From an uncultured Clostridia bacterium (lineage in GTDB: Bacteria; Bacillota; Clostridia; Christensenellales; Aristaeellaceae): a stretch of 64,000 nt of DNA. The stretch lies in contig CAMJUL010000007.1 of assembly GCA_946408995.1 (NCBI GenBank), forward strand, positions 17 to 64,016, read 5' to 3'. Within the stretch, counting starts at the first letter, position 1. Each line of letters begins with the position of its first letter. Below are positions 19,647 to 63,737 of this stretch, in pieces. Made by a program: the position numbers and the translations under genes. The notes beneath the pieces were generated by a model. The model did not search any database and was not told where the DNA came from. It saw nothing but the letters and a program-made list of their open reading frames with translations.

Positions 19647-19664
19647 TGTATATCGCTGAAAAGC

Positions 19665-21344: not shown

Positions 21345-21395
21345 GGGATATACCTCCTTTATATTTCATATGCGATTCCGCATATTGAATCAGGT

Positions 21396-22322: not shown

Positions 22323-22339
22323 GTCCTTTTCCTCCTTTC

Positions 22340-23296: not shown

Positions 23297-23392
23297 GCCG
23301 GAACACCCCTTTCATGTTTGAGACGGGATCAGGGAGGAATTCTTCGCGCACAATGTAACATTCGGGAAAGAAAACGCTCAAGTCCCAAAACC

Positions 23393-23445
23393 CCAAAACA
23401 GAGCCCAGAATCCCTTGCATTCAGGATTTTGGGTTCTGTTTTTGG
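23393..23445 (-). terminator. Imperfect long hairpin after the AraC-type regulator gene
   Basis: About 21-nt imperfect inverted repeat (CCAAAACAGAGCCCAGAATCC / GGATTTTGGGTTCTGTTTTTGG) around a 10-nt loop. Confidence 0.4.
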
Positions 23446-23483
23446 ACTTTGGCGTAATTTCTCCCACTTGTGACATAAATCCT

Positions 23484-44297: not shown

Positions 44298-44705
44298 TCA
44301 AAGCTTTTTTGTGAAGGACAGGATGTTTTGACCGTCCTCGTATCTGTAATGGATCTCATCCATGCTTTTTTTGACCATATAGATCCCAAGACCGCCAATC
44401 TGCCGTTCTTCGGCGCTCAAGGTCACGTCCGGATCAGGCCTGGCCAGCGGATTGAAGGGGATCCCATGATCCCGGAATTCAATGCGGACGGAAGGAGGTT
44501 CCGAAACCGTTTCGATCCGGATCTGCGCTTCCCCTGTGCGTGGAGCATAGGCATACGTTGCGATGTTGACATAGATTTCTTCCACGGCCACGTCGATCTG
44601 CATCTGCGTTTTCATTGGGCAGGCAAGCGCTTCGAGATGGGCGTCGACAAAAGCCAATACCTTCTCAAGGGATTCCACACTGGCTTGCAGCGTCATTTCA
44701 TGCAT
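44298..44705 (-). CDS. Anti-sigma-factor-type serine kinase (RsbW/SpoIIAB-like HATPase domain)
   Basis: 135 aa. AVEEIYVNI (N-box region), RDHGIPFNPL (G1) and IGGLGIYMVKK (G2/ATP lid). Confidence 0.7.
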   Translation of the reverse strand: MHEMTLQASVESLEKVLAFVDAHLEALACPMKTQMQIDVAVEEIYVNIATYAYAPRTGEAQIRIETVSEPPSVRIEFRDHGIPFNPLARPDPDVTLSAEERQIGGLGIYMVKKSMDEIHYRYEDGQNILSFTKKL

Positions 44706-44841: not shown

Positions 44842-46617
44842 TTATAATACTACCCGCATTACGTTGAATCCTTCATAATTCCGGTAGGTGAATGATTTGG
44901 CCGTTTTTTTGACCATCAGGACGCCAACAGAATCAAGAAACTCTTCTTCCCTCCCCTTTTGGAGCTTGCCCATATTCATCATCAAGGGATTGAAGCGGGG
45001 GGCGCTGTTGCGGATGCAAAGGGTGCAGTCTCCGCTTTCTTCAAGGGCGAGGGTGATCTGGATGTATTCATCATTCTTCCCGCTGAACGCCCGTTCCATG
45101 GTAACAAGACACAGCTCTTCAACGGCAAGCTGGATCTGCATTGCTTTTTTCAAAGGGATCTCCTGTGCGCGGCAGAACGCGTCAAGACGGACCAGCACCT
45201 GATGAAGTTCATGATCGGCATTGTTCAAGACGGCGCTGAAAAGAGGAAGCCTGCGCTGTACGTTTCCCCGTTCAAAGAGAAAACGGATCGCCAGAAAAGC
45301 CAGCAGGGAAGCGGCTTCCGTGGCGGGGAACAGCAGCCAGAAGGACTTTGGAAAAAGCAGACCGAAAAGAACCGTAAAGGGAAGCAGGAAGACAGCGCTC
45401 CTCAGGAGGGTGATCAGGCTGCTCAGCTTTGCGCAGCCGGAGGACTGATAATACGCGATGAGGATAAAAAGGGCCCCCGCTATGGGCGTACTCAGGCAGA
45501 ACCACCGAATGGCCGGAACAGATATCAGGACGGAAGCGGAATCCCGGAGGCCAAAGACACCGGAAATGGGGACGGCAAGCAGCGCGAGAACAGCGGAAAG
45601 GAAGGCCCCCAGGCCCACCCCCCAAAACAGGGCCAGACGGAGGGCGTATTTGAGACTGGATTCGTCATGCTCCTCGCTGAAGGTGGAAGCCAAAGGCTGC
45701 ATGGTTTCCGCTGAAGCCCGGTAGATGGAATAGGCCACATGGGAGACGTTCATGACAACGTCAAAGACGGCCACGTACAGGGACCCGTCAATGATTCCGC
45801 GGTCTCCGGCGGCAAGCAGTAGGCGGTTTGCAATGAAAAGGAACAGGAACTGGAACACATAGCGCACAGAGGTGGAAAAACCGATCCCCAGGGATTCAAG
45901 GCAGAGGGAGAGGACCTGGGCGGGCTCCCCCCGGGCACGGAGGATGGATTTCAAATGAAGGACACCGCTGTGATCAAACAAATGGACGGAAAGCACGGCT
46001 GCGCATACGATCTGCGCGGTAACGGTCGCCCAAACAGACCCAGCGACCCCTTTTCCAAGGATCAGCACGAAGAAAATATTCAGGCCCAGGTCAACAGCGC
46101 TGCCAAGGGTCAGCCCGAGGGTGGCCAGGCCGGGTTCGTCATCACATCGGGTAAAGTCGTAAAGAAGAAAATTGAGCATGAACAAGGGTGCGGCACCGAC
46201 CAGCGGCCGGGCATAGCTTTCACACAGGGAGAGGAGCTCCTTCCGGGTGTCGTTAACGCCAAGAAGCGCAAGGAGGGGGCGCATGAACACATTGCCGAGA
46301 ACTGCAAAAAGCAACGCTCCCAAAAGCGCCTTCCACGCCAGAGAGCGAAAAACGCACAAAGCGGTTTCGTTCTTGCCGCCGGCCGTCAGCTTCCCGTGGG
46401 TGACACAGCCGCCCCGGGCAATCCCATAACCGAACAGGTTGTAGATCATATAGATCGGGGTAACGATGCCGATCGCGGCCAGTCCCTGTTCCCCGACCCG
46501 CTGTCCGACGACCAACGCGTCCGCGATATCCGCAAAGGATAAAGCCAGGGCGGAAATCGAGGCTGGCCAAAGCACCCGATAGAACATTTTGCGCGGAAAC
46601 CAACGATTCGGGTTCAT
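44842..46617 (-). CDS. MATE-family transporter fused to a C-terminal RsbW-like HATPase domain
   Basis: Start at ATG 46617. The first 455 aa or so are polytopic MATE-like. The last 135 aa or so align with the neighbouring 135-aa kinase (AVEELCLV, FNPL, MVKK), but G1/G2 are degenerate (NSAPRFNPL, LDSVGVLMVKK). Confidence 0.7.
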   Translation of the reverse strand: MNPNRWFPRKMFYRVLWPASISALALSFADIADALVVGQRVGEQGLAAIGIVTPIYMIYNLFGYGIARGGCVTHGKLTAGGKNETALCVFRSLAWKALLGALLFAVLGNVFMRPLLALLGVNDTRKELLSLCESYARPLVGAAPLFMLNFLLYDFTRCDDEPGLATLGLTLGSAVDLGLNIFFVLILGKGVAGSVWATVTAQIVCAAVLSVHLFDHSGVLHLKSILRARGEPAQVLSLCLESLGIGFSTSVRYVFQFLFLFIANRLLLAAGDRGIIDGSLYVAVFDVVMNVSHVAYSIYRASAETMQPLASTFSEEHDESSLKYALRLALFWGVGLGAFLSAVLALLAVPISGVFGLRDSASVLISVPAIRWFCLSTPIAGALFILIAYYQSSGCAKLSSLITLLRSAVFLLPFTVLFGLLFPKSFWLLFPATEAASLLAFLAIRFLFERGNVQRRLPLFSAVLNNADHELHQVLVRLDAFCRAQEIPLKKAMQIQLAVEELCLVTMERAFSGKNDEYIQITLALEESGDCTLCIRNSAPRFNPLMMNMGKLQKGREEEFLDSVGVLMVKKTAKSFTYRNYEGFNVMRVVL

Positions 46618-47058
46618 AAATACGCCTCGTAAATAAACAAGCGATTTTGGAAAAAGCATTGTGTCTTTGCCGTCTGCTGCAGTCCGGGCTCTTTCAGGCT
46701 GAACGGCGGACACGGGAGGGCAACATCGCCAGGCTGGATCCCGGAACGGAAAAGCGTCAGCACGCTTCAGGAAGGAAGGGCTGTATCAAGGGCAGGGGAG
46801 CCCCTTTTTGGCAGACGATAAAGCGGGGAGCAAAGAGGAGAAAAAAGAAGATCCCTTTTCTGCGTATCGTAGAGCCATCTGCGGATCTTGCCGGCGTCCC
46901 CGCAGGGAAAGAAACAGGCGTTGAACAGACGGCTGCGGTCCATCAGGTGTAGGCCAAGAGATCAGCAAAGGAAAGGAAGTGCGGAAGGGGGAGCAAAAGA
47001 GGAGTCCTTGAGCCGTGAGGCCTGACAAAGAGCACGGTTTCCATTGGGTGAAAAGGGA

Positions 47059-47358
47059 TCATGGCTCAATACTGAGAATGTCCACAATACCCGTTGCTTC
47101 AAAGATTTCCATGATTTCAAGGGGAACAATCCGGATGACCTGCTGCCCAGACAGTTCATGGCCTTCTGGGCGGAAAGCAGCACCTGAAGGCCGGCAGAAG
47201 AAAGATAGACCAAGCTTTTCGGGTCAAAAACCGGATTTTACGATGCGGGATAGAGATGCGCGAAGCGCTTCCTCAAGCTGTGGGGCCGTGCTGGTGTCAA
47301 GCCTTCCTTCCGGTTCAATGACAAGAGCGTTCTCTTCCTGCTTTTTCTTGCTCTCCAT
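47059..47358 (-). pseudogene. STAS-domain anti-sigma-factor antagonist (SpoIIAA/RsbV-like) with two frameshifts
   Basis: My own translation gives three segments in three frames. They are MESKKKQEENALVIEPEGRLDTSTAPQLEEALRASLSRIVKSG, then FDPKSLVYLSSAGLQVLLSAQKAM, then ELSGQQVIRIVPLEIMEIFEATGIVDILSIEP. The switches are near 47226-47230 and 47155-47165. Confidence 0.55.
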
Positions 47359-47584
47359 GATTGTATCCCTGCAGTTTTAATTTGCTGCTTTAGCGGGATC
47401 CATCGGGCGGGACAGCCCGGTCCGCCGGGAAATGCCGTTCATGAGAGTTCCCTGTGTATTCAATACGCGGGGATTATACCACAGGACCTGTATATATACA
47501 AGCGGGTATATGATGCACCGGATAGGGCAGCGCGGGATTGCGTGCGGAAATCCTCCTTGCCTCAAAGAACCGCAAACTGAAGGA

Positions 47585-47614
47585 ATGGTAAGAAATGTAA
47601 TGGTAAGAAATGTA
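47585..47614. repeat. Perfect tandem duplication of a 15-nt unit (ATGGTAAGAAATGTA x2)
   Basis: Read directly. It is followed by the inverted repeat ATTGTTA-N8-TAACAAT at 47614-47635. Confidence 0.85.
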
Positions 47615-47658
47615 ATTGTTACGTTATTATAACAATGCTTTCGGAAAAGAATAGATTC

Positions 47659-47687
47659 TTGAAAAAAATGCCGGAATGGATTATAAT
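47659..47687 (+). promoter_or_regulatory. Sigma-70-type promoter for the polysaccharide locus
   Basis: TTGAAA-N17-TATAAT in an AT-rich region, about 180 nt upstream of ATG 47868. Confidence 0.5.
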
Positions 47688-47867
47688 AAATTGATTGTAT
47701 GGTAAGGTGGATTAGACTTCCTGTACAATGTATTTTTATCCTTTTTAATGTATGGCTCATACGGGCATTTGTTCGGGATACACACGGGGTCCGCGAAGGG
47801 GGATCACAGAGATCGATCCGACTGTGAACGCTTTTCGCCGGTTCCACGGATGGAGGATGCATCGCGA

Positions 47868-49283
47868 ATGAAAAAAAGCATTGATCTTGGCAAGCTGATG
47901 CTTTTTATTCTGAAAAACAGCTGGCTCGTTATTCTTTGCGCAGCCATCTGCTTTGGTGTCATGTACTGGCGCACTGCCAGCAGGCAGGTGGATACCTATA
48001 CGGCTTCCGGCACCATGTATGTATACAACGGCAACCCGAATCTGGTCAATTATCAGTATACAAGTACTTCCGATCTGAACAGCGCCATTCAGCTTCTGGA
48101 CACCTATTCGGTGGTCGTCAGGAGCAACAAGGTCCTGGATGCCGTGGCCGAGCGGCTCAGTGCGGATTATCCGGGAATTACCCCTGAATTTATCAACTCC
48201 ACCCTTTCCATGGGTTCTGTATCGGATACCGGCGTGATGCGGATCAGCTGCACGTCCACCGCGGCCCAGCTTTCTGCGGACATCTGCAACGCCGTTTTGG
48301 ACGTGGCGCCCGCGGAGATCATCCGTGTGGTCAATGCCGGCGGAATCGAAATTATCGATTACGCCGCAGTTCCGGAATCGCCCAACAGTCGGAACCCGAT
48401 GATGAAGGGAGCTATCGGAGGCCTTGCCGGTGCGGTGCTGGCGGCTGGGGTGCTCAGCGTTTTGTTTCTTGTGAACCAAAGGGTCGGCTCCGCCAAGGAA
48501 CTGACGGACAGCTATACCCCGCCGGTGCTGGCGGAGGTTTGCCTGGACAAACGGAAAAACGATCAGAACGGGCATTTTTTGCTGACGGCCCAAAGCCCCA
48601 TGGAGATCACGGAAAGCTACGCAAAGCTTCGCATGAACCTTTCCTACACCCTGGTCGGGAAGAACAGCCGTGCTGTCATGATCACCAGCTCCATTTCCGG
48701 GGAGGGGAAATCCACCATCGCGGCCAACCTGGCCATTTCCTGCGCCCTGAGCGGGCGAAAAGTGCTTCTGGTGGACGCGGATATGCGCCGGGCCTGTCAA
48801 AAGGACCTGTTCATGCTGGAGGACGGGCTTCCGGGACTGTCTGATGTGCTTGCAGGCAGCTTCAGATGGCAGGATGTCATCCTGCCTCAGGCGGAACGGG
48901 GGATCGACCTGCTTCCTGCCGGGCATATCCCTCCCAACCCCGCGGAACTTCTGGAATCCGGGGAGATGGAACGGCTGCTGGGCGAGCTGGCCGGGGCGTA
49001 TGATCTGATCCTGGTGGATTCCCCTCCGATCAACATCGTATCGGACCCGGTGGCACTGGCAAACAAGGTTGCCGGCGCGTTGTTTGTGGTGCGGCAGGGG
49101 GTTTCCGAACACCGGGAGATACGCCAGGCGCTCAATACGGCCGAGCTGGTCAACCTGAACCTGCTGGGCTTTATCTTCTATGCAAACAATCCCCGCAAAG
49201 GCTCCTATTACAGCAAAAAATACTACAAGTATTATCACCAGTACGACAAAAGAGGCCAGGACCAACAGAAAGGAAACGTTTGA
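47868..49283 (+). CDS. Fused chain-length-regulator (Wzz/CpsC-like) and BY-tyrosine-kinase (CpsD/Wzc-like) protein
   Basis: Start at ATG 47868 (GGAGG upstream). N-terminal TM, Wzz-like domain and second TM, then Walker A SGEGKST, Walker A' VLLVDADMRR, Walker B LILVDSPP, and the C-terminal Tyr cluster SYYSKKYYKYYHQY. Confidence 0.85.
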   Translation: MKKSIDLGKLMLFILKNSWLVILCAAICFGVMYWRTASRQVDTYTASGTMYVYNGNPNLVNYQYTSTSDLNSAIQLLDTYSVVVRSNKVLDAVAERLSADYPGITPEFINSTLSMGSVSDTGVMRISCTSTAAQLSADICNAVLDVAPAEIIRVVNAGGIEIIDYAAVPESPNSRNPMMKGAIGGLAGAVLAAGVLSVLFLVNQRVGSAKELTDSYTPPVLAEVCLDKRKNDQNGHFLLTAQSPMEITESYAKLRMNLSYTLVGKNSRAVMITSSISGEGKSTIAANLAISCALSGRKVLLVDADMRRACQKDLFMLEDGLPGLSDVLAGSFRWQDVILPQAERGIDLLPAGHIPPNPAELLESGEMERLLGELAGAYDLILVDSPPINIVSDPVALANKVAGALFVVRQGVSEHREIRQALNTAELVNLNLLGFIFYANNPRKGSYYSKKYYKYYHQYDKRGQDQQKGNV

Positions 49284-49297: not shown

Positions 49298-52200
49298 ATG
49301 AGGGAAAAAGCGGGAAAATGGATTTTGCTCCTTCTGCTGACGCTGTGTCTGTCCAGCTGCTTTGTTTGGTCGGCTTTGGCCGAAAACGTTTTCGCCCTTA
49401 CTCTGCCCACAGTTACCGAAACGGACTGCGTTTGGGACGGGGAAGGGAACCTGATCAGCGAGACGGCGCATGACCTTTCCGGCGCGCCGGCGCTGAATCA
49501 GAGGGGCTTCTTCAGAGGCGAGTATACCTGGGACGCTCACGGAGATCTTCTCTCGGAGCGGTACTACGGGCTGAACGGAGAGCCTGTCGTGACGGACGCC
49601 GGCTATGCCTGGGCGGAATATACCTATTATATTGATTCCGATGATGTCGCCCATGTGCTGACGGTGGACCGGTACGCCGCGGACGGATCCCGGGCGGAGG
49701 TGCCGGGCAGCTACAGCTACCGCAGAGACGCCTACCAGGACGATATGCTTTTGTACAGCGAATACTTTGATGCTGCGGGACAGTATACCCGGCCCACCGG
49801 CGGATATGCCCGTATCCTAGTGGATCATCAAAACGTCGGGAGCGTGCTCCGGCTGACTTTCCGGTACCTGGACGCGGACGGAAGTCCGCTGATCGGGCCG
49901 GACGGCGGGGCCGTGATGGTTTCGGAATATACCTACTGCTATATGACAGAAGACGGGGAAAAGGTGTTTCTGGACCCGAGAACAGCGGATCCGGAGGACC
50001 CGCTCTGGGGGCTGGAGCTGGATACGGAAAAACGGCTGGGCGTCAAGAAGCACTGGCTGCTCCTCTCCCGGGAGATCTTTGGGAAGGACGGTTCCCCTAC
50101 CCTGGGCACCCACCATTTCCACCGCCAGAAAAACACCTATGACGCGCATTACAATCTCGTCCGTACGGACTATTTCGGGGTGGAGGAAGAGCCTGTGATG
50201 GCGACCACCGGGTATGCCTCCATCGTGAATACCTACGACTCCATCGACCGGCTGATCCAGGTGGATTATCTGGACCGGCAAGGGGCTTTGGTTAAGATGG
50301 TCAACGGCTACGCCAGGATCAAATATGCGTATTATGGAAGTACCGATGTCCTTCACTACGAATGGTATTTTGGCGCGGACGGCATGCGCACCATGCGTAC
50401 GGAAGGTTATTCCATGGCGGAGCACGAATACAATGGCCCGGACTATGATTACCGCATTACCTATTACGACATCATCGACGAATACACCATGATGGATCAG
50501 GGCTTTGCCCGGATCGAATACAAGTTTTACGGGCAGCGGGGCTACAGGGAGAACAGCGGCACCTGGATTCTCCGTCTGGCGGATATCCTGTGGGAAAAGT
50601 ATTATGGCGTGGATATGCGCCTGATCCAGACCAAGGCCCATTACGCGGGGTACCTCAATGATTACAACGGGAACGGGCAGGTCATCAGGACCACCTATAT
50701 GGACGAAAACTGGGTCCCTGTCCGCAATGATGAAAAGCAGTTCGCGATCATCGAATATCAGTACAAGGGCACCCGGAAGGACGACCCACCTGTATACGAA
50801 GCGTATTTTGATGAAATGCATGTTCCCTGCGAGGGGATCACAGGGGCCTACGCCCGTTCCATGGTCTATGGCGGGCCCAAGGAAAACCTGCTGTTTGAGG
50901 AATGCTTCTTTGACGCCAATGGGGGGAAAACCGTAAGCATTGAGAACAATGCCCATCGGGTGACGTATTATTACAGCGGCAACCTGTCCGGGGGCGAGCT
51001 GGTACAGACCCGCGTATGCTATTACGACGTGGACGGCAGTCCCATCGGCAACCATGTCGGGGTCGCCGCCATGTACAGGGAGTACAGGCATGACGGCGGG
51101 CTTCTGTGGGAAATGGCTTTCGACAAGGACGGGAAGCTGACCGTATCCGGCAGCCATGCCGCTGCCCAGCTGCACACATATGATTACGCCGGCCAGGCGA
51201 ACTGGGATGTGTTCTTTGGGACGGACGGCCTGCCGGTGACCCACAAGGCGGGGTATTCCGCCGTGGCCTATCGGCACGATTTGGACGGAAATATCACGGA
51301 AACGACCTATTACAACGCCGAAGGGGATCCTGCGGCTGTTTCCGGCAGGGCAAGGATCGTCAGGACCTATGACGACAGCCACCGCGTTGTCTATGAGGCC
51401 TATTATGGGACGGATCTGAAGCCTGTGCGGGTGGATACAGGGTATGCTGCAAGGCGCATTGAACGGGACAGCCGGACAGGACTCCTTACCCGTGAGGCCT
51501 TTTATGACGAAAACGACAAGCCCGTCCAGCTTTCCAGCGGCTATTCGTCCTATATCGTTGAATATGACCTGAACAGGGTCCGGACCAAAGTCGCGTACTA
51601 TGATGTGAACGGGAATCCGGTCGCGCCTCCGTCTGTCCGCTACGCCTGGTATGAGCGGCAAACGGACGAACACGGAAACATCCTGGAGGAAGCCTATTAC
51701 AACCCGGACGGCAGCCTGATCGTCAACCGGGACGGCTATTCCGTGACGGTGATGACCTATGACGTCAACGATTATCGGACCAGCGTTACCTATCTGGATA
51801 CCGCCCGGAAACCGGTGCTTACTGCCTTGGGCTATGCCCGGGTGGAAGAGACCTACGACGCCCACGGGAACCAGCTCAGCGCGGCGTATTTTGACGCTGC
51901 CCTGAAGCCGATGGTTCTTCAGGAGGGATGGCATCGGGTCCTCTATGCGTGGGATCCCGAGAACCGCAAGCTGTCCGAGGCCTATTTCGATGCGCAGGGG
52001 ATGCCCGTTGAATGTCCCTTTGGGTATGCCTCCTTCGCGAGGGAATATGATACAAACGGCAATCTGATCCGTGAGGTGTATTACGGGACCGATGGCCGCG
52101 TCACCAATGTGACGGCCGGCGCTGCCCTGATGGAGCGGGAGTATGATACCCGGAACCGTCTTCTGAGCGAAAGGTATTATGACGAAACAGGCCTCCCCTT

Positions 52201-55192
52201 GATGCTCAGGGGGGATTACGCGGCGGTCGAGTATGCCTATGACGGGTTTGACAACGTCATCCGTGAAGCGTACTTTGACGCCGACGGGAACGGCGTCGTT
52301 TCTTCCAAGGGGTTTGCCCTGATGGAACGCGTCTATGACGCGTCCGAGAACCTGCTTTCGGAGCAGTATACAGACGCCCAGGGTCATTTGCTGGTGCAGA
52401 AATCAGGATACGCGAAGCTTGTTCAGACCTGGGACACCCACGGAAACCTGACCACCCAGGCCTGGTACGGTTCAGATGGAATGCCTCTTTTGCAGGATGG
52501 CGGCTACGCGTATATCGAATATCGGTATGACGCCCACGGGAACTGCCTCAGCCAGCGCTGGTATGAGCGTGAAGGGAAAGCGGCGACCCTCGCCGGCGGG
52601 TATGACCGCAAGGATTACTCCTATGACGCGTCCAACAACAGGATCCTGGAGGTTTATTACCTTGAGGGTCAGATTGTCACGATCGATGAGGGGTACGCGG
52701 CCAGGCGGTTTGACTATGACAGCATGAACCGGGTCGTCAAGGAGTCCCTCCTGGGCAGACAGCTGGGCCGGGTGATGGGAAAAAGAGGCTATTCGGCGAT
52801 CCAGTATATTTATGACTATGCAGGGCACACCCTTCAGGTCCGGTATCTGGACAGCCTGGATCATCTGGTGCGGCTTCCGGAGGGCTTCAGCGTATGGCAG
52901 CGGGAATATGATCAGTACGGACATGTTATCCTGGAGCAGTACCTGGACGAAAAGGAGCGGATCGCGTCCCTTACCAACCGCTCTCCTGTGATCCGCAGGA
53001 CATATGACGGCCGCGGGAATCTTCTCCGCCAGGAATACCTGACCGCGGCGCTCCAGCCTTGGGAACTGCATTTTGGATACGCAACCCTTGTATATACCTA
53101 TGACGACCAGGACAGACAGACCAGCGTGACCTATCTGGATGCCAAGGACCTGCCGGTGCTGATGTCTGAGGGGTATGCGGCCATCCGGTATGAATATGGC
53201 ACGCAGGGGAAGGCCTGGCGGGTAACGTATCTGGACACCGCCGAGCAGCCCACCCTGAACAAGGACGGTTATGCCGTCGCCGTGTATACCTACGACGAAA
53301 ACCTGTACCTGACCTATATCGAATACCAGGATGACTCCTATCAGCGCACTTATCTGTATGACGGATATTCCGCCATCCGGCGGACCGTGGATAAAAACGG
53401 GGACATCCTGACAGAGACGTATCTGGACAATGACGATCTTCCCGTTCCCCGCGCCCAGGGCTATGCCATGATCCGTAATACCTGGGACGACAGACAGCGG
53501 AGGATCCGGCTGGAATATCTGGATACGGAAGGCCTTCCGGTCATGATGGAGGGCAGCTACTGCGCCATCGGATACGCTTATGACAACAGTGACAACCTGA
53601 TCCGCCGGTCTTATTACGGCAAGAACGGGCAGCTGACCTGGGGACGCTTTGGCTACAGTGAGATCGTTTATACCTTCAATGCCAGGAATTTCTGCGTAGC
53701 GGAGCAGCTTTTGAACATTCAGGGTCAGCACGCCATCCATTCAAGTTACTATTATTCCTCCCTTCAGCGGGACGTGGATCCGGATGGCAAGATCCTCTCG
53801 GTCCGCTATTATGACGCGGGCGGAAATCCGGTGCTGTATCAGAACGATTATTATGAGGTGCGGTATACCTACGACCTGGCCGCAAGGGAAACGGCCGTTA
53901 GTTACTATGACCGCAGCGGCGTTCTCAGCAAGGGGACCCGCGGCTTTGCCACCCGGACAAGGGAATACAACGACCTGGGCCTTGTTACTCGCGAGGCGTA
54001 TTTTGACGGGAATGGAAACCTTTGCAACACCGTCGACGGCTACGCGCTTACAGTGTACACCTATGACGAACTTGGGAATATGACCTCTGAGCGCCACTAC
54101 GATACCCTGTTCCTGGGGGTGACGCCTACAGGCTCGCTTTACGCGTATGTCAAAAAAGCCTACGATGAGGAGGGCCGCGTTGTCAGCGAGGAATATCTTG
54201 ACGATTTCGACCGCTATGTCCTGAACGAAGACGGATACGCCGCCCATTTTATCAGCTACAATGAAAATGGTCGGATCGCGGAGGAGTATTATCTGGACAA
54301 TTACCATCAACCGGTCAACGTGGGCGGGTTCAGCCGCAGGACCCTGGTCCGCGAAAATGAGGCGGACAGGACCTATACCATGCGGGAGGAGCTTTTGGAT
54401 CCCCTTGAGGGTGAAGTGGTCTCCATTACCGAACAAACCTATAACCATTACGACCGTGCGGTGGAGACCCGTTATCTGGACAAAAACGGGCAGATGACCA
54501 CCGGGGCCGAAGGCTGCGGCATCGTGCGGAGAGAGTATACCGGCAGGGGAGCGGTTTCCCTGGAACTGTACCTGAATGAAAAGGAAGAACCGGTCGCCGT
54601 GAATGGGGTCTATGGCGTCCGGAGGGATTACAACGCTTACGGAAATCTGGCGCTTGAAACCTGGCTGGACCGGGACGGCAACGCCGCAACGACCCTGAAC
54701 GGATACGCTGCCATCCGGTACGACTATGATCTGAGCAATTCCGAACGGGTCGAGAAATACTTTCAATACTATCTAGACACGGCGGGAAACCGCTGCGCCG
54801 CAAAGAACGGCGCGTGGGGGGTCAGTACCCTGTATTATCCCGTGACCTTGGTGCGGGTCATCACCTTCATCGATCGGGACGACAATCCCATCACCACAAC
54901 CGACGGATACGCCATTATGGAATATGAAGAGGATCAAAACGGCAATCACGTCTGGGAAGGCTATTATGACGCACGCCATGCACAGGTCAATTGCAGCGAA
55001 GGCTATTCCAGCGTGGAACGCTCCTTTGACAGCCGGGGACGGGTCATCAGCGAACGGTATCTGGACCGTTACAACAAACTGACAAATAACGCCGATGGGG
55101 TGGCCGGGTGGACCGGGTACTATAATGACGACGGAACCCTTGTGATCACCAGCCGGTATGACAAGGACCGCAGGCAGCTGCCCAAGGAATAA
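49298..55192 (+). CDS. Giant secreted protein (1964 aa) made almost entirely of 32-residue tandem repeats (YD-like motif), function unknown
   Basis: ATG 49298 lies 9 nt after GAAGGAG. Signal peptide/lipobox MREKAGKWILLLLLTLCLSSCFVWSALA. The repeating unit is G-Y-A-x5-Y-D-x2-G-N-x4-E-x-Y-x-D-x2-G-x-P-V, with a strict 32-aa period over long runs. Confidence 0.85.
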   Translation: MREKAGKWILLLLLTLCLSSCFVWSALAENVFALTLPTVTETDCVWDGEGNLISETAHDLSGAPALNQRGFFRGEYTWDAHGDLLSERYYGLNGEPVVTDAGYAWAEYTYYIDSDDVAHVLTVDRYAADGSRAEVPGSYSYRRDAYQDDMLLYSEYFDAAGQYTRPTGGYARILVDHQNVGSVLRLTFRYLDADGSPLIGPDGGAVMVSEYTYCYMTEDGEKVFLDPRTADPEDPLWGLELDTEKRLGVKKHWLLLSREIFGKDGSPTLGTHHFHRQKNTYDAHYNLVRTDYFGVEEEPVMATTGYASIVNTYDSIDRLIQVDYLDRQGALVKMVNGYARIKYAYYGSTDVLHYEWYFGADGMRTMRTEGYSMAEHEYNGPDYDYRITYYDIIDEYTMMDQGFARIEYKFYGQRGYRENSGTWILRLADILWEKYYGVDMRLIQTKAHYAGYLNDYNGNGQVIRTTYMDENWVPVRNDEKQFAIIEYQYKGTRKDDPPVYEAYFDEMHVPCEGITGAYARSMVYGGPKENLLFEECFFDANGGKTVSIENNAHRVTYYYSGNLSGGELVQTRVCYYDVDGSPIGNHVGVAAMYREYRHDGGLLWEMAFDKDGKLTVSGSHAAAQLHTYDYAGQANWDVFFGTDGLPVTHKAGYSAVAYRHDLDGNITETTYYNAEGDPAAVSGRARIVRTYDDSHRVVYEAYYGTDLKPVRVDTGYAARRIERDSRTGLLTREAFYDENDKPVQLSSGYSSYIVEYDLNRVRTKVAYYDVNGNPVAPPSVRYAWYERQTDEHGNILEEAYYNPDGSLIVNRDGYSVTVMTYDVNDYRTSVTYLDTARKPVLTALGYARVEETYDAHGNQLSAAYFDAALKPMVLQEGWHRVLYAWDPENRKLSEAYFDAQGMPVECPFGYASFAREYDTNGNLIREVYYGTDGRVTNVTAGAALMEREYDTRNRLLSERYYDETGLPLMLRGDYAAVEYAYDGFDNVIREAYFDADGNGVVSSKGFALMERVYDASENLLSEQYTDAQGHLLVQKSGYAKLVQTWDTHGNLTTQAWYGSDGMPLLQDGGYAYIEYRYDAHGNCLSQRWYEREGKAATLAGGYDRKDYSYDASNNRILEVYYLEGQIVTIDEGYAARRFDYDSMNRVVKESLLGRQLGRVMGKRGYSAIQYIYDYAGHTLQVRYLDSLDHLVRLPEGFSVWQREYDQYGHVILEQYLDEKERIASLTNRSPVIRRTYDGRGNLLRQEYLTAALQPWELHFGYATLVYTYDDQDRQTSVTYLDAKDLPVLMSEGYAAIRYEYGTQGKAWRVTYLDTAEQPTLNKDGYAVAVYTYDENLYLTYIEYQDDSYQRTYLYDGYSAIRRTVDKNGDILTETYLDNDDLPVPRAQGYAMIRNTWDDRQRRIRLEYLDTEGLPVMMEGSYCAIGYAYDNSDNLIRRSYYGKNGQLTWGRFGYSEIVYTFNARNFCVAEQLLNIQGQHAIHSSYYYSSLQRDVDPDGKILSVRYYDAGGNPVLYQNDYYEVRYTYDLAARETAVSYYDRSGVLSKGTRGFATRTREYNDLGLVTREAYFDGNGNLCNTVDGYALTVYTYDELGNMTSERHYDTLFLGVTPTGSLYAYVKKAYDEEGRVVSEEYLDDFDRYVLNEDGYAAHFISYNENGRIAEEYYLDNYHQPVNVGGFSRRTLVRENEADRTYTMREELLDPLEGEVVSITEQTYNHYDRAVETRYLDKNGQMTTGAEGCGIVRREYTGRGAVSLELYLNEKEEPVAVNGVYGVRRDYNAYGNLALETWLDRDGNAATTLNGYAAIRYDYDLSNSERVEKYFQYYLDTAGNRCAAKNGAWGVSTLYYPVTLVRVITFIDRDDNPITTTDGYAIMEYEEDQNGNHVWEGYYDARHAQVNCSEGYSSVERSFDSRGRVISERYLDRYNKLTNNADGVAGWTGYYNDDGTLVITSRYDKDRRQLPKE

Positions 55193-55209: not shown

Positions 55210-56286
55210 ATGAACAAAATCAGAACGCATGGGTTTGGCAAAGCTTCTCTGCGGCGCTTGGCGGCGATGCTCCTCTTTGTATGCCTGGTATGCTCCGCCG
55301 CCCTGGGAGAAGGCAGGGACCGTTCCAACGCCGATTGGGTCAACTTTCTCCTGCTGTGCAACGAAGGAATGAACAACGACAAAGGGAACGCCGGCAACAC
55401 CATGATGGTTGTGGCCATGCATCCGACCACCGGACGCATACGTCTAATGATGTTCTGTTGGGACACCTTTATCGATTATGAGGGGTATGACCTGCCGCAG
55501 ACGCTTGATATGCCGTACCGCAACAATGGGCCGGCCGAAACCATGAAGGTCTTCGACGAGAACTTTGGCATGCATATCCATCTTTTTATGTCCATCAACT
55601 TCCTTAATCTGGCTTCCCTGATCGATTATTACGGGGGGGTCACCGTGGATGTGACCCGGGCGGAACGGAACGCCCTGAACGGCATGGTCTCCTCCAAAAA
55701 GGAACAGCTCAAAGCCCAGGCTGCCACCGGCCTTCTCAGCCAGATCTTGCTGGATTCACTGGCAACGGAATACTATATCAGCGATTTCGGTCCGGAAACC
55801 CATCTGAACGGGCTGCAGGCGGTGGGTTTCGGCTGGCTTCAGTATGATTCCGTTTACAATTGCTGCGAACGGTCCGTGGAAGTGATTGCCAGCCTCTTTT
55901 CCAGCGTTGCAAAGCATATCAATGAACAGGTCATCCTGTATACGGACGAAACCGGCTATCCGGACGACACCTACGGCAAACGTCCCGTCAACCTGGACCA
56001 GGTGACGGAGGAAGACATGGATTTCCTGCACGAGGCCATCGGCCCGATTTTCCAGAAATCCTTCCACGACCTGAAGGAGGACGAAATCGACTCCATCACC
56101 CTGACACTGGCCCGGGTGGCCTATCAGGCGTCCCGGCAGGGGTTCGATCTATTCAGCGCGCTGGACCACACGGTCCTTCCCCTGGAAGCCAATGATGAAT
56201 ATGTGATCATTGCCGGGGCGAAGGGGCATGTGATCGATAAGCAGGCCAATATCAAGGCGATCAGGGAATTCCTTTACAAGGATTGA
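55210..56286 (+). CDS. LytR-CpsA-Psr (LCP) family glycopolymer ligase
   Basis: N-terminal TM, then the LCP core NFLLLCNEG...NTMMVVAMHP...FMSINFLNLASLIDYYGGVTVDV. Confidence 0.85.
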   Translation: MNKIRTHGFGKASLRRLAAMLLFVCLVCSAALGEGRDRSNADWVNFLLLCNEGMNNDKGNAGNTMMVVAMHPTTGRIRLMMFCWDTFIDYEGYDLPQTLDMPYRNNGPAETMKVFDENFGMHIHLFMSINFLNLASLIDYYGGVTVDVTRAERNALNGMVSSKKEQLKAQAATGLLSQILLDSLATEYYISDFGPETHLNGLQAVGFGWLQYDSVYNCCERSVEVIASLFSSVAKHINEQVILYTDETGYPDDTYGKRPVNLDQVTEEDMDFLHEAIGPIFQKSFHDLKEDEIDSITLTLARVAYQASRQGFDLFSALDHTVLPLEANDEYVIIAGAKGHVIDKQANIKAIREFLYKD

Positions 56287-59738: not shown

Positions 59739-60704
59739 ATGAATATCCTGATCCTTAGTGTGGGAACACGCAATAAGATCGTCCAGTATTTTAAAAAAAG
59801 CATCACCGGAAAAGTCGTTGTGACAGATATGTCTCCAATTGCGCCTGCAATTTTTGAGGCGGACAGCTATTATATTGTTCCGGCGATTACAGCACCTAAT
59901 TACATAGACATGATTCTGGATATTTGTATAAAGGAAAAAATCAATGCAGTAATGTCTTTGATCGATCCGGAATTGTCATTGCTTGCCCAAAACATCGACA
60001 GGTTTTCCGGCGTTGGCGTGATGGTGATCGGCTCGTCTTACGAATTATGCGAAATGTCGCTGGACAAAATGAAAATGTTTGCTTTTTGCAGGCAGAACGG
60101 GTTCAATTGTGCAGAAAGCTATGAATCGATCGCGCAGTTTGAATCGGCCCTCCGTCAAGACAGGATTTCTTTTCCGGTTTTTGTAAAGCCAATCAGGGGC
60201 AGCGCTTCCATCAATATCTCCAAAATCGACAACATGGAACTGCTCAATGTGGTTTTCAAGCAAAGCGATCAATTGATGATCCAGCAGTATCTTCGTGGTC
60301 AGGAAATTGGCGCGGATGTTTACATTGATATGGTTTCGGGGGAAATTGTTTCTATTTTCACAAAAAAGAAGATCCTTATGCGAGCGGGCGAGACGGATAA
60401 AGCAGTAAGCTTTAAGGAAGACAGATTGTTCGAATATATAGAGCGTTTTGTGAAGGTTGCCGGATTCCGCGGGCAGATCGATATCGATCTTTTTGACATC
60501 GATGGCGAATACTACATTTCGGAAGTGAATCCACGCTTCGGCGGCGGATACCCCCACGCGTACGAATGCGGGTGCGATCATATGAAACTGATCGAAAACA
60601 ATGTGAACGGGATTGCCAATACAAGACAGATCGGCAATTATCAATCCGGCATTTACATGATGAAATACAACGAAATCAAGATTTGCCAGGATATCCGGTC
60701 CTGA
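59739..60704 (+). CDS. ATP-grasp enzyme (carboxylate-amine ligase type)
   Basis: 321 aa. FPVFVKPIRGSAS, MIQQYLRGQEIGADVY and ISEVNPRFGGGYP, typical of the ATP-grasp fold. This is the first gene of the low-GC block. Confidence 0.75.
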   Translation: MNILILSVGTRNKIVQYFKKSITGKVVVTDMSPIAPAIFEADSYYIVPAITAPNYIDMILDICIKEKINAVMSLIDPELSLLAQNIDRFSGVGVMVIGSSYELCEMSLDKMKMFAFCRQNGFNCAESYESIAQFESALRQDRISFPVFVKPIRGSASINISKIDNMELLNVVFKQSDQLMIQQYLRGQEIGADVYIDMVSGEIVSIFTKKKILMRAGETDKAVSFKEDRLFEYIERFVKVAGFRGQIDIDLFDIDGEYYISEVNPRFGGGYPHAYECGCDHMKLIENNVNGIANTRQIGNYQSGIYMMKYNEIKICQDIRS

Positions 60705-60737
60705 TCGTCTGGAACAAATGCGACATATAGTTTTTTC

Positions 60738-61412
60738 ATGCTGGGAGGGATAACATTGTACCGGACCTATATTAAGCGTTTGCTGGATTTTGTTCTATCC
60801 TTGTGTGCCATTATCGTCCTCTCTCCAATTATGCTTGTGCTGACGATTGCGGGCTTCTTCGCAATGAAAGGGAACCCATTCTTTTTTCAGGAACGGCCGG
60901 GATTGCATGAAAAGATTTTTACGCTTATCAAATTCAGGACAATGACCAATGAAAAAGACGCGGACGGAAAATTGCTGCACGATGAAGACCGTCTGACTTC
61001 CTATGGCAAGTTTTTAAGGTCGACCTCTCTGGACGAGCTTCCGGAGCTCTTTAATATCCTGAAGGGGGACCTTTCTATTGTAGGGCCCCGCCCATTGCTG
61101 GTGAGGTATCTGCCTTTTTATACTGAAGAAGAACATCACAGGCATGACATCCGTCCGGGTCTGACAGGATATGCGCAAGTCCATGGCAGGAATTATGTCA
61201 AGTGGGAAGAAAAATTTAAAATGGATCTTTGGTACGTTAAGCATGTTTCCTTTAAAACGGACCTTCGTATCCTGTTGGACACGGTCATCGTTGTTTTAAA
61301 GAGGGAGAATATCGAGACCGCCAGTATTATCGTCCATGATGGTGTGACTTATCAGCCCTTTGATGTTGAACGGAAGGCCCAATGGGAAAGGGAGGGGCAT
61401 CATGAACAATAA
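60738..61412 (+). CDS. Small monotopic phosphoglycosyl transferase (PglC/WbaP C-terminal type bacterial sugar transferase)
   Basis: One N-terminal hydrophobic helix, then KFRTM, SLDELPQL-like SLDELPELFNILKGDLSIVGPRP and PGLTGYAQV. Confidence 0.85.
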   Translation: MLGGITLYRTYIKRLLDFVLSLCAIIVLSPIMLVLTIAGFFAMKGNPFFFQERPGLHEKIFTLIKFRTMTNEKDADGKLLHDEDRLTSYGKFLRSTSLDELPELFNILKGDLSIVGPRPLLVRYLPFYTEEEHHRHDIRPGLTGYAQVHGRNYVKWEEKFKMDLWYVKHVSFKTDLRILLDTVIVVLKRENIETASIIVHDGVTYQPFDVERKAQWEREGHHEQ

Positions 61413-62718
61413 TAAAAAGAATGTATTGGTATTTCCAAGCCCTGTATATCCGGCTTTGCAGGTGATCGATTGCCTGAAACACTGTTTGCAGGTCCATGTA
61501 ATTGCGGGGGCAAGCTATTCAAACCATGCCGAATACATTTGCGATGACACAATCTGTGATATGCCCTATATCACTTCGGAGGGGTTCCTGGACTATTTGA
61601 TTGGACTGGTCCATGACAGAGCCATTGATTTGATTATCCCTACAGATGATACGGCGGCATTGTTCCTGTCCGAACATGCAGAGGAAATCCCCGCCAAAGT
61701 CGTGTGTTCCCCGTATGAAACGGCGAAGATCTGCCGCTATAAAAGCCTGACCTATGAGGTTTTAAAGGGCAAATCTTATATCCCCAAAGCATACTCCGTG
61801 GATGAAATAGATCAGATTGAAGATTATCCGGTTTTTATCAAACCGGATATCGGAGCCGGGTCCAGGGGGGCCACGAAGATTTATTCTGCGGAACAGTTGA
61901 AGAATGTAAAAGAACTTGAAAACTATGTGATTTGTGAGTATCTGCCCGGGGAAGAATATACCATCGACTGTTTTACTAACAAGGACAGATCCCTGCTGTT
62001 TTGCAATCCCCGGGTCCGGTCCCGATTGATCAACGGGAAAACAGGCAGGGGCCACAATGTTGCTTTGACGGATGAGATGCGGGCGATCATTGAATCGCTG
62101 AATGAATCCATCGTTTTCCGCGGGTATTGGTTTGCACAGTTAAAAAGAGATGCACAAGGCAAATTAAAGCTGCTGGAGATTTGCACAAGGTTTTCCGGTT
62201 CATTCGTTTTCAGCAAAAGCAGGGGGGTTAATCTTCCGCTTCTTGCAGTTTGTGATTTTTCGGGGATCCCTGCGGATGTTGTCGTGAATGATTATGAGGT
62301 GGAATGCGATAAATCCTATATCGACAGGATCCGTATCAGCTACCCGTATAATCATCTGTACATTGATTTTGACGATACGATCACCTCTGAGGGTGGGAAG
62401 AACGTTAATCCTTATGTGATGGCCTATCTGTATCAATGCAGGGCAAAAAATATTAAAATCTCTTTGATATCACGGCATGCTGTTTCTAAAAAAGAAAGTT
62501 TGGAAGACGCCTTCAGCAGACTATGTATTTCGAAAGATCTGTTTGATGAAATTATCGAACTGGATTGGGATGAACTGAAATCGAATAAAATCGAGGATGT
62601 ATCCAAAAGCATTTTTCTGGACAACAGTTTTAAGGAACGGAAAGAAGTGCACGACAAACTTGGGATTCCGGTTTTTGATCTTTGCAATCTGGATGCTTTA
62701 TTTGATTGGAGAGCGTAA
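61402..62718 (+). CDS. Fusion of an ATP-grasp domain with a C-terminal HAD-like phosphatase domain
   Basis: Start at ATG 61402 (GGGAGGGG upstream, overlapping the previous gene by 11 nt). ATP-grasp blocks YPVFIKPDIGAGSRG and ICEYLPGEEYTIDCF. The C-terminal part has the HAD motif I YIDFDDTIT. Confidence 0.7.
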   Translation: MNNNKKNVLVFPSPVYPALQVIDCLKHCLQVHVIAGASYSNHAEYICDDTICDMPYITSEGFLDYLIGLVHDRAIDLIIPTDDTAALFLSEHAEEIPAKVVCSPYETAKICRYKSLTYEVLKGKSYIPKAYSVDEIDQIEDYPVFIKPDIGAGSRGATKIYSAEQLKNVKELENYVICEYLPGEEYTIDCFTNKDRSLLFCNPRVRSRLINGKTGRGHNVALTDEMRAIIESLNESIVFRGYWFAQLKRDAQGKLKLLEICTRFSGSFVFSKSRGVNLPLLAVCDFSGIPADVVVNDYEVECDKSYIDRIRISYPYNHLYIDFDDTITSEGGKNVNPYVMAYLYQCRAKNIKISLISRHAVSKKESLEDAFSRLCISKDLFDEIIELDWDELKSNKIEDVSKSIFLDNSFKERKEVHDKLGIPVFDLCNLDALFDWRA

Positions 62719-62720
62719 TC

Positions 62721-63737
62721 ATGCAAAATGAAAACAATTTGATCAGCGTTGTCGTGCCGGCATACAATGTTGAAAAATACATTGAAAAATGCGTAGACAG
62801 TCTTCTTCAGCAAGAACTAGACTGCAAATATGAAATCATTCTCGTAGATGATGGATCCACAGATGGAACAAGCAGTTTGATTGATTCTTTTGCTGAGAAC
62901 AATAAAAACATTTATGCCTATCATAAAAGCAATGGCGGATTGTCCAGCGCAAGAAACTATGGAATTCTGCATTCCAGCGGGAATTTGATTACTTTTGTTG
63001 ATTCTGATGATTACGTCTCCAGGACTTACCTGAAGGACATGCTGTATCTTTTGCAAAAATATGATGCAGATATGTCAATTACGAAAGTGGTACTCAGGAC
63101 GCCAGGGCAAGAACTTAGAAGTGTTTTTTCAGATTTTCTTGTAGACCGTAAAGAAGCACTTTATGAAGTGTATTGTAATGATCGTATCAGCTGGCTTGCC
63201 GTTGGAAAACTATATAAGCGAGAGGTTTTCGCGGATGTACTTTTCCCTGATGGATATTATGAAGATCAAGCCAGCTCATATAAGTTTATTGATAAATGCG
63301 ATAAGGTTTCGATTGGTGATTACAGGAATAATTACTATTACATTCAACGCGATGGAAGCATTTCATTTTCCAAGTTTAATCCCAAGCACTTAAGAGCATT
63401 TGAAATATGTGAGGAATTTTCGGATTATGTAAAGAAGACTTATCCGGACATGTTTTATATTGTGATTATGACCTGCCAAAAGTCGGTTCAGCTTCTTTTA
63501 AACAGATTGGTCACGACAAGAGAAGAATTTAATCGGATTTATTATAAATACCGCGGCATGTTCAGAAGCAATGCTGGCAGTATACTTAAAAACAGCAGGA
63601 TTCCAACTCGGTCCAAGATTTATTACATTGTGATGTGTTCTACGCCATTCATTTATAAGCTGTTCTCAGGAAGTATTCAAATGCTTGGAACGCTCAAACG
63701 AAAGCTTATGAGCTATCGCCAAAGACAAGACGGATAA
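62721..63737 (+). CDS. Family 2 glycosyltransferase
   Basis: ISVVVPAYNVEKYIEKCVDSLLQQ, ILVDDGSTDGT and FVDSDD (DXD) motifs. Confidence 0.85.
   Translation: MQNENNLISVVVPAYNVEKYIEKCVDSLLQQELDCKYEIILVDDGSTDGTSSLIDSFAENNKNIYAYHKSNGGLSSARNYGILHSSGNLITFVDSDDYVSRTYLKDMLYLLQKYDADMSITKVVLRTPGQELRSVFSDFLVDRKEALYEVYCNDRISWLAVGKLYKREVFADVLFPDGYYEDQASSYKFIDKCDKVSIGDYRNNYYYIQRDGSISFSKFNPKHLRAFEICEEFSDYVKKTYPDMFYIVIMTCQKSVQLLLNRLVTTREEFNRIYYKYRGMFRSNAGSILKNSRIPTRSKIYYIVMCSTPFIYKLFSGSIQMLGTLKRKLMSYRQRQDG

Follow-up and report, generated by a model that had tools for sequence, protein, structure and literature searches.

A predicted exported, toxin-free YD-type repeat protein encoded within capsule-type polysaccharide operons of ruminant-gut Clostridia

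We analyzed a 64,000-nucleotide stretch of DNA from an uncultured Clostridia bacterium (GenBank assembly GCA_946408995.1, contig CAMJUL010000007.1, positions 17 to 64,016 of the forward strand; hereafter, the window). One gene in the window encodes a 1964-residue protein carrying a long array of 32-residue repeats. This repeat gene lies between a gene for a bacterial tyrosine kinase (BY-kinase) fused to a Wzz domain and a gene for a LytR-CpsA-Psr (LCP) protein. The best reading of our results is that the repeat protein is an exported, toxin-free accessory component of a Gram-positive polysaccharide assembly operon of the Wzz/BY-kinase and LCP type. More tentatively, at a probability of about 0.45, we suggest that the array binds the polysaccharide product of the operon (or the wall to which this product is attached by the LCP protein) along a repeated surface, stays in the layer, and scaffolds or organizes it.

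Results

A 1964-residue protein with a 32-residue period

The repeat gene is an uninterrupted open reading frame (ORF) with an ATG start codon; an alternative start, TTG, lies 18 nucleotides (nt) upstream of the ATG at 49298. The gene and the parts of its product are as follows, in window coordinates.

49298-55192, + strand: predicted secreted YD-type repeat protein, 1964 residues, ~57 beta-hairpin units of 32 residues; uninterrupted ORF, ATG start
49298-49381, + strand: predicted Sec/signal peptidase I (SPase-I) signal peptide, residues 1-28, ending in ...SALA and followed by EN; from hydrophobicity and orthologue alignment
49973-50032, + strand: low-confidence insertion in an elongated N-terminal hairpin, residues ~226-245; pLDDT (per-residue model confidence) < 50 in model 2 (model residues 199-218)
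50774-50998, + strand: insertion of ~75 residues without confident structure, residues ~493-567; pLDDT < 50 in model 2 (model residues 466-540)
51251-53746, + strand: strict-period core, 26 units of 32 residues (one of 31, one of 33), residues 652-1483; from the coordinates of the unit hidden Markov model (HMM)
55001-55189, + strand: best-conserved segment, the C-terminal ~63 residues, ...ERYLDRYNKLTNNADGVAGWxGYYxxDGxLVITSRYDxDR...; orthologue identity 0.74 in the last block

We found that the protein is strongly periodic. Residue identity at a lag of 32 was 0.182, compared to 0.066 ± 0.006 in shuffled versions of the protein (z = 20.3; the highest of 2000 shuffles reached 0.086). Further peaks were at lags of 64, 96, and 128, multiples of 32. 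A preliminary description of this DNA, made from its sequence, had reported a strict 32-residue tandem period in the 1964-residue protein, and this comparison with shuffled sequences confirms it. The strict register is confined to approximately residues 650-1480; the N-terminal 650 and the C-terminal 480 residues have longer hairpins and insertions. An iterated HMM of the unit detected 46 units (domain E <= 0.05), or 50 at E <= 1, with the consensus GYARIEYTYDANGNLLSEAYYDADGKPVMLRG. Approximately 35 hairpins, degenerate stretches included, were present in an AlphaFold model of residues 28-1227 (model 2, below). Because of this density, we estimate ~57-60 hairpins in the 1936-residue mature protein, in agreement with the initial count of 50-60 repeats.

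Mean pairwise identity among the units was 24% at the protein level and 41% at the DNA level, and Tandem Repeats Finder detected no array within the repeat gene. Since the units have diverged in DNA and form no array by this program, the repeats are not an artefact or collapse of the assembly, as the preliminary description had also concluded.

The mature protein of 1936 residues (222 kDa) contains 10.7% tyrosine and is acidic (300 acidic and 194 basic residues; net charge about -106). A scan of the whole sequence found no LPXTG motif and no hydrophobic or transmembrane segment beyond the signal peptide. The insertion at residues ~226-245 coincides with the block of lowest conservation among orthologues (0.35). 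In the well-conserved C-terminal ~63 residues the sole other signal was a sub-threshold match to WG_beta_rep. Conservation among repeats, compared with that among orthologues phase by phase, did not single out a functional face. The exact sequence of the protein, taken from the ATG start, was absent from a collection of 15 billion proteins.

The repeat protein is predicted to be exported by a Sec/SPase-I signal peptide

The repeat protein has a single hydrophobic segment, at residues 4-28. A lipobox (LCLSSC) had been proposed there. We found that LSSC is present in the window protein and that its cysteine is missing from five orthologues (L005, L009, L010, L015, and L003). What the orthologues share instead is a basic n-region, a hydrophobic core, and an AxA-type site, followed by a mature start of ...LSxPVFTETxCEWD. 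Because the AxA-type site and the mature start are conserved and the cysteine is not, we rejected the lipoprotein reading and assigned the signal peptide to the Sec/SPase-I type. Export of the repeat protein by this route is a prediction from sequence, and one that we regard as firm.

The repeat gene is part of a polysaccharide operon

The genes and sites flanking the repeat gene are as follows.

47659-47687, + strand: candidate operon promoter, sigma-70-like, TTGAAA-17-TATAAT, 11/12 matches, ~60 nt 5' of the kinase gene; from a consensus scan only
47748-49283, + strand: fusion of Wzz and a P-loop BY-kinase, CpsC/CpsD-like, 511 residues; Pfam Wzz at 44-135 and AAA_31/CbiA/ParA at 309-476
55210-56286, + strand: LCP protein, 358 residues; Pfam PF03816, 46.6 bits
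56368-63737, + strand: same-strand block of sugar-precursor and transferase genes, encoding a CapD-like Polysacc_synt_2 protein, a DegT aminotransferase, a PylC-like ATP-grasp protein, a Bac_transf priming transferase, a second ATP-grasp protein, and a GT2 protein

The gap between the kinase and repeat genes is 14 nt and that between the repeat and LCP genes is 17 nt, and each contains a Shine-Dalgarno-like site. No terminator-like site was found at either junction, and GC content is uniform through the kinase-repeat-LCP block. The kinase, repeat, and LCP genes thus most likely share a transcript, and translation of the repeat gene may be coupled to that of the other two. Its placement in the polysaccharide operon by the preliminary description is supported by the short gaps with their Shine-Dalgarno-like sites, by the uniform GC content, and by the conserved gene order described below.

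Further downstream, the presence of two ATP-grasp enzymes beside CapD and DegT suggests an amino-acid-decorated amino sugar. GC content drops from ~0.56 to 0.37-0.45 over 59739-63737 (Bac_transf, second ATP-grasp, and GT2), and this part of the locus looks like a horizontally exchanged, serotype-like variable region. The ~1 kb 5' of the operon (46714-47747) contains no long ORF, is AT-rich at its 3' end, and may hold regulatory elements; a search of the whole window against Rfam gave no match.

The kinase-repeat-LCP gene order is conserved in ruminant-gut Clostridia

We scanned one genome per GTDB species for orthologues of the repeat gene. Orthologues were found in 13 metagenome-assembled genomes (MAGs), each a different species and all from the gut of sheep, goat, or cattle. 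These MAGs are labeled Clostridia, Clostridiales, Lachnospiraceae, or 'Blautia sp.'. Further orthologues are encoded on three metagenome contigs. Over the whole set, identity to the window protein was 46-56%. The ten full-length orthologues (1946-1969 residues, 50-56% identity) are collinear with it, with 22-92 gapped columns in the alignments. Because they are collinear and so few columns are gapped, the number of units appears to be fixed and each unit individually conserved, in contrast to the 9-56 units found over the wider family.

The neighbors are conserved as well. A Wzz/BY-kinase gene (kinase orthologues at 46-64% identity) is directly 5' of the repeat gene in 16/16 Clostridia loci with flanking sequence. 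An LCP gene is directly 3' in 8/9 orthologous loci that reach that far; the exception is L015. Judged from alignment and gene order, the secreted array is a conserved, previously undescribed member of capsule-type operons in ruminant-gut Clostridia.

The adjacent LCP gene allows an explanation different from polymer binding. The array could be the protein core of a proteoglycan-like capsule, with the LCP protein transferring polymer onto repeated acceptor sites on the array, besides or instead of peptidoglycan. There is a precedent in Actinomyces, where protein glycosylation depends on LCP (LcpA/GspA). The LCP gene directly after the array gene in those eight loci (17-nt gap in the window) fits this explanation, as does an LCP gene two genes upstream of P0056, an array gene of a second subfamily (below). 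However, the unit consensus shows no conserved acceptor motif rich in Ser/Thr, L015 has no LCP neighbor, and three other array genes at glycan loci (P0171, P0021, and P0009) have no LCP gene nearby. The proteoglycan explanation is also conjectural throughout, and we consider it improbable.

Clusters of radical-SAM/PqqD/ScmC peptide-maturation genes with small ORFs lie near some array genes (L001:5546-8072; L002:4915-8381 and 19552-25404; L027:17086-19685). We rejected these as a lead: neither the window nor any of the other orthologous loci has them, and their presence is probably a coincidence in Clostridia rich in ribosomally synthesized and post-translationally modified peptides.

Array genes recur at other glycan loci

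We found a second subfamily of secreted arrays. Its members have the mature N-terminus ...LSTNL..., are 940-1870 residues long, and are ~25% identical to the window protein. The following genes belong to it.

L024:2723-7024: second secreted subfamily
L025:8001-12875: second secreted subfamily
L027:8001-11756: second secreted subfamily
L002:10001-15601: second secreted subfamily
L022:2625-6566: second secreted subfamily

Four members of this subfamily (P0056, P0171, P0065, and P0145) were chosen by architecture alone, blind to locus. Three of the four are within or beside capsule-type loci. The P0056 gene directly follows genes for a CpsD-type kinase, an LCP protein, and CpsB. The P0171 gene follows CapD in a locus that also encodes a UDP-glucose dehydrogenase, a pyruvyl transferase, and a Wzx-type flippase. 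The P0065 gene is 2.7 kb from an orthologous pair of the window kinase and repeat genes. Both secreted subfamilies are present in L025, where a gene for a GGDEF/HD response regulator separates the two array genes.

Other array genes are also found near glycan genes. P0003 is near CapD and two acyltransferases. P0021, in which the array follows a multi-transmembrane domain, is inside a locus with GT2, Wzm-Wzt, Bac_transf, and pyruvyl-transferase genes, and P0009, of the same architecture, adjoins phosphonate-biosynthesis genes. The control P0005, of the signaling type (TIR, transmembrane helix, array), is not at a glycan locus. In Myxococcota, lipoprotein relatives have a CapD-like neighbor on the opposite strand in 3/3 loci; we could not trace a complete polysaccharide cluster around these genes. 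The association of arrays with glycan loci appears consistent and to have arisen more than once, although the sample is small and the argument is one of guilt by association. According to the preliminary description, such a protein is not a normal part of capsule loci. That is correct for textbook loci, but not for metagenomic loci of the Clostridia type, in which the protein recurs.

The Myxococcota relatives (L018:974-4966, L019:4133-8116, and L020:9476-13477) are ~1330 residues long and have true (A/G)C lipoboxes. They share a conserved cysteine-rich C-terminal tail, ...CYPGAYCGH...DCxKxECF.

The repeat unit is related to YD/RHS repeats

No Pfam or NCBIfam model matched the window protein above threshold, including PF05593 (RHS_repeat) and TIGR01643 (YD_repeat_2x). 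There was also no match to CW_binding_1, SLH, MORN_2, a carbohydrate-binding module, or the combined repetitive oligopeptides (CROPs) of clostridial toxins. Two matches fell below threshold: PF03527 'RHS' at residues 1879-1892 (E 0.014; 15.7 bits against a cut-off of 27.9) and WG_beta_rep (E 0.26; 11.8 bits against 25.6). RHS_repeat, MORN_2, and WG_beta_rep, all named in the preliminary description as families to search, thus gave nothing above cut-off.

Some relatives of the window protein do pass the models. A search of 5.8 billion proteins yielded 2 close and 33 distant relatives, and the spacing of 32 (or 33) residues is present in all 35. Above the RHS_repeat cut-off (22 bits) were P0004 (106.7), P0007 (52.5), and the L020 protein (39.1); above the YD_repeat_2x cut-off (15.8 bits) were P0008 (69.8) and P0007 (50.1). 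Because these relatives have the 32-residue unit and pass models that the window protein does not, the membership of the window protein in the YD/RHS group is by transitive homology. When a profile of a four-unit block was compared with the PDB, 17/18 matches were to Rhs proteins, teneurins, or Tse5; these matches were weak (E >= 0.003).

We obtained two AlphaFold2 models, one of residues 652-1291 (model 1; 38 aligned sequences) and one of residues 28-1227 (model 2). Model 1 had a mean pLDDT of 95.9 and a predicted TM-score (pTM) of 0.75. In each unit of model 1, strands of 6 and 7 residues form a hairpin around a Y-D-x-x-G-N turn; a second turn, (Y/F)-D-x-x-G-x-P, follows, leading into an extended linker that has one bridge residue. 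In model 2 (pLDDT 83.4, pTM 0.53) the hairpins start at the mature N-terminus and there is no separate globular domain. The drop in pTM from 0.75 at 640 residues to 0.53 at 1200 residues is expected for an open array.

We compared the models with the PDB using Foldseek. The top 44 matches of model 1 (E 1e-24 to 1e-8, probability 1.0) were Rhs effectors of type VI secretion systems (T6SS), teneurins, a bacterial teneurin-like protein, mosquito SGS1, and Tc BC shells. Far weaker matches were to CROP regions of clostridial toxins and to the single-layer sheet of OspA. Model 2 also matched Rhs, teneurin, and Tc proteins, with E values down to 1e-31. Superposition on whole shells was poor. The TM-score of the 640-residue model 1 (TMq) was 0.11-0.27, with a root-mean-square deviation of 22-40 Å, and the TM-score of model 2 was 0.12-0.23, at a length (1200 residues) that equals a whole Rhs core of about 1000 residues.

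Taken together, the homologue scores and the models place the repeat unit as a 32-residue variant within the YD/RHS superfamily, rather than as an orphan fold, a MORN repeat, or a WG repeat. The modeled architecture appears to be shared with Rhs, teneurin, and Tc proteins at the level of the hairpin, and the models point away from a closed cocoon. The preliminary description had noted a resemblance to YD/RHS repeats. The likeness holds, but it is more than resemblance: relatives that pass the models, the PDB profile, and Foldseek argue for remote homology and a shared fold. The same matches speak against a novel repeat outside any characterized family, and the low TM-scores, even with a 1200-residue model, against a shell-like structure; a beta-rich scaffold agrees with the one beta-hairpin per unit in the models. 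A characterized repeat family was named at that time as an observation that would count against novelty. Such a family was found as far as the fold is concerned; its function, toxin encapsulation, does not transfer to the window protein.

The relationship to teneurins bears on the possibility that the repeat protein is an adhesin or surface coat for an external target (plant fiber, host mucus, other microbes, or, as a decoy, phage), co-regulated with the capsule and not binding it. The protein is extracellular by prediction, very large, repetitive, tyrosine-rich, and acidic, and its hosts are Clostridia of the ruminant gut. Teneurin ectodomains with YD repeats mediate adhesion (according to PDB titles), and an adhesive role has been proposed for RHS stalks (PMC3482391). 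On the other hand, an adhesin with no anchor of its own would need a hold on the cell, most simply through the polymer. The repeat gene is placed inside the kinase/LCP core and not at the edge of the locus, a position conserved in more than 13 species and arrived at independently elsewhere. The orthologues are collinear with a fixed number of units, unlike typical fast-evolving adhesin arrays. We therefore regard an adhesin as quite unlikely.

The repeat protein lacks the features of a toxin container

We searched for features of YD/RHS proteins that enclose toxins. A regular-expression search for DP.G[LWMIV], which covers the DPxGL/PxxxxDPxGL autoproteolysis motif, found no occurrence in the repeat protein. 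According to the unit HMM and the orthologue alignment, units and a conserved repeat-like tail reach the C-terminus, leaving no C-terminal non-repeat domain. No toxin family was detected with Pfam or NCBIfam. No PAAR, VgrG/T6SS, TcA, type VII secretion, or immunity gene is near the repeat gene in the window or at the orthologous loci. Motif, hydrophobicity, Pfam, and NCBIfam scans thus agree with the earlier statement that the protein has no LPXTG motif, no C-terminal transmembrane segment, and no toxin domain.

A classical cocoon of the Rhs/Tc type, enclosing and delivering a toxin, might still be considered, since Rhs T6SS effectors and Tc BC shells head the Foldseek matches and since the sub-threshold 'RHS' match (E 0.014) falls at residues 1879-1892, near the C-terminus. 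We rejected this toxin-container reading as extremely improbable. In addition to the missing motif, C-terminal domain, toxin, and delivery or immunity genes (the next gene encodes the LCP protein), the TM-scores to cocoons remain at 0.11-0.27 even at 1200 residues, and the period is 32 residues and not ~21.

Most relatives are predicted membrane-bound signaling proteins

We found that the 32-residue repeat is widespread and not rare. When the four-unit profile was run as an HMM against all of 1.84 billion cluster representatives, 9,988 carried the repeat type at E <= 1e-3 and 2,983 at E <= 1e-30. We classified the architectures of 179 proteins: the window protein, the 35 homologues found before, and the best 143 new matches. 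In approximately 125/179 a single transmembrane helix joins the array to a cytoplasmic nSTAND1 NTPase, TIR, or Hanks kinase domain, often with a C-terminal PDZ domain as well; the array follows the helix and is thus extracytoplasmic. In 9/179 an unassigned domain of 8-10 transmembrane helices precedes the array, ~27/179 have other N-termini, and 13/179, including the window protein, consist of a signal peptide and array only. In the literature that we searched, we found no description of the 32-residue repeat type and no experimental study of the transmembrane kinase/TIR/nSTAND1 array proteins.

These architectures are the basis of the main rival to polymer binding. The array could be an extracellular sensor or regulator of the BY-kinase, one half of a split kinase-transmembrane-array system. 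Having bound a cue (nascent polymer, the state of the wall, or a foreign surface), it would tune kinase oligomerization or phosphorylation through the Wzz ectodomain, and hence polymer synthesis or chain length. The ~125/179 proteins with the array outside, one transmembrane helix, and a Hanks kinase, TIR, or nSTAND1 domain inside favor this explanation. So does the position of the array gene in the clade of the window protein, always directly after a membrane kinase gene (14-nt gap in the window), and so does the GGDEF/HD response regulator between the two array genes of L025. However, the BY-kinase is unrelated to Hanks kinases, and P0171, P0021, and P0009 are at glycan genes without an adjacent kinase. 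In addition, the fixed array of ~57 units seems longer than a sensor would need, as arrays of the sensor type have 13-38 units. We judge regulation of the kinase to be unlikely, yet likelier than any other rival.

The transmembrane kinase/TIR/nSTAND1 array family includes P0004-P0035 and P0036-P0178 (e.g., L028:6861-12731). As a group, these proteins look like outside-in sensors of a class not studied before, with a possible part in conflict or immunity. Fusions of an 8-10-helix domain to an array are found in L004:7117-11979 (P0009), L021:10001-13960 (P0021), P0093, P0100, P0104, P0137, P0144, P0176, and P0178. The domain is ~450-700 residues long with conserved R, G, H, and E positions. In P0009 and P0021 it had no Pfam match at E <= 10 and no PDB profile match; it could be a glycan-handling enzyme. 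A faint precomputed match to PF27244 'GtfB_M' on several family members was not returned by our local Pfam scan and was not used.

Other genes near the operon

A gene on the - strand (44842-46713) encodes a MatE transporter fused to a C-terminal HATPase_c_2 domain, which is anti-sigma-kinase-like. Beside it, also on the - strand (44298-44705), is a stand-alone HATPase_c_2 gene. In L010, too, the kinase gene has a HATPase_c_2 homologue (54% identity) just 5' of it.

Discussion

Proposed function of the array

We propose that an acidic, tyrosine-rich beta-ribbon is exported. The repeated surface of the ribbon would bind the polymer of the operon, or the wall to which the LCP protein attaches that polymer. 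This binding would retain the ribbon in the polysaccharide layer without a covalent anchor, and the retained ribbon, which would enclose no toxin, could then scaffold or organize the layer. Arrays of hairpin repeats that hold proteins non-covalently on glycans or wall polymers are known from CROPs and choline-binding repeats. RHS repeats themselves have been proposed to bind carbohydrate (PMC3482391). The preliminary description had guessed that the protein binds or organizes the polymer, and we retain this as the best reading, at the tentative level given at the outset. It is favored by the synteny in more than 13 species and by the recurrence of arrays at glycan loci in other lineages.

Several results weigh against polymer binding. 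No recognized carbohydrate-binding module, SLH domain, or CW_binding repeat was found with Pfam and NCBIfam. One of the four blind picks, P0145, has no glycan neighbors. Two other array genes are associated with the envelope only, P0029 adjoining PGA_cap and P0068 adjoining a gene for a PG_binding_1 protein. Guilt by association cannot tell binding from regulation or from service as a substrate of glycosylation. Finally, most of the repeat family is joined to signaling domains, which points to sensing and not to scaffolding.

A broader explanation, which we consider rather doubtful, would be that the 32-residue array is a general extracytoplasmic module for recognition of glycan or envelope. 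In thousands of bacteria it would serve as the outer sensor of kinase, TIR, and STAND proteins of the transmembrane type. Released in Clostridia as a free ~220-kDa ribbon, it would be an integral and overlooked structural part of the capsule machinery, working either as a ruler or scaffold with the Wzz-kinase or as an LCP-ligated core, a bacterial 'proteoglycan'.

Comparison with known systems

Outside the orthologue clade, the closest sequence relatives of the window protein are the transmembrane kinase/TIR/nSTAND1 proteins annotated as 'YD repeat-containing' (P0004-P0035, e.g., in MAGs of Chthoniobacterales), with 22-31% identity over hundreds of residues and E values down to 1e-139. They have the same 32-residue unit and spacing and an extracytoplasmic array. 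Unlike the window protein, they are single-pass proteins with a signaling head, often a C-terminal PDZ domain, and 13-38 units.

WapA of the Gram-positive Bacillus subtilis is exported by Sec, associated with the wall, and rich in YD repeats; it has a tRNase toxin at its end, an immunity gene (wapI), and N-terminal wall-binding repeats. The window protein has no toxin, immunity gene, or wall-binding repeats, and its gene is in a polysaccharide operon.

The shells of Rhs proteins (RhsA, 7q97; Tse5, 8cp6; RhsP, 8h8a) and Tc BC complexes (TcdB2-TccC3, 4o9x; YenB/C, 4igl) are built, like the models of the window protein, of a beta-hairpin sheet with a Y-D-x-x-G turn. The window protein differs from them in its period (32 versus ~21), in the second (Y/F)-D-x-x-G-x-P turn and extended linker of each unit, in its predicted Sec export, and in its capsule-type operon. 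It also lacks an autoprotease motif, toxin, plug, and delivery genes, and its TM-scores to these shells are <= 0.27. Teneurins and bacterial teneurin-like proteins (6fb3, 9ifo; PMC13018210) likewise have an extracellular YD-repeat beta structure (Foldseek E 1e-15 to 1e-25). They differ in having a closed YD shell, from which the models of the window protein point away, and an FN-plug, an NHL propeller, and a C-terminal toxin-like domain, none of which the window protein has; their period is different as well.

CROPs, choline-binding (CW_binding_1) repeats, and the glucan-binding repeats of glucansucrases are comparable by analogy only, as tandem units of a hairpin and a loop with 20-31 residues. 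The CROP toxins TcdA and TcsL matched model 1 weakly in structure (E about 1e-8, TM-score 0.13) and did not match in sequence.

Capsule and extracellular polysaccharide assembly in Gram-positive bacteria is viewed as the work of a small conserved module (CpsA-D) together with serotype-specific enzymes. The genes flanking the window array correspond to this CpsA-D, or Wzz-BY-kinase-LCP, module of Wzy-dependent capsule loci, as do those of the P0056 locus. Described modules of the CpsA-D type (e.g., PMC12220298, PMC10937973) are not known to include a large repeat protein, and the window array would be an extra member. The conservation of a protein of ~2000 residues within the module, and its recurrence elsewhere, imply that the current view of how cells build, hold, or measure the polymer layer lacks a component. 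The YD/Rhs fold is familiar almost exclusively from toxin containers and the teneurin shell; our results extend it to a large toxin-free branch with a 32-residue period. This branch, with ~10,000 cluster representatives, appears to be used extracellularly, mostly on signaling proteins.

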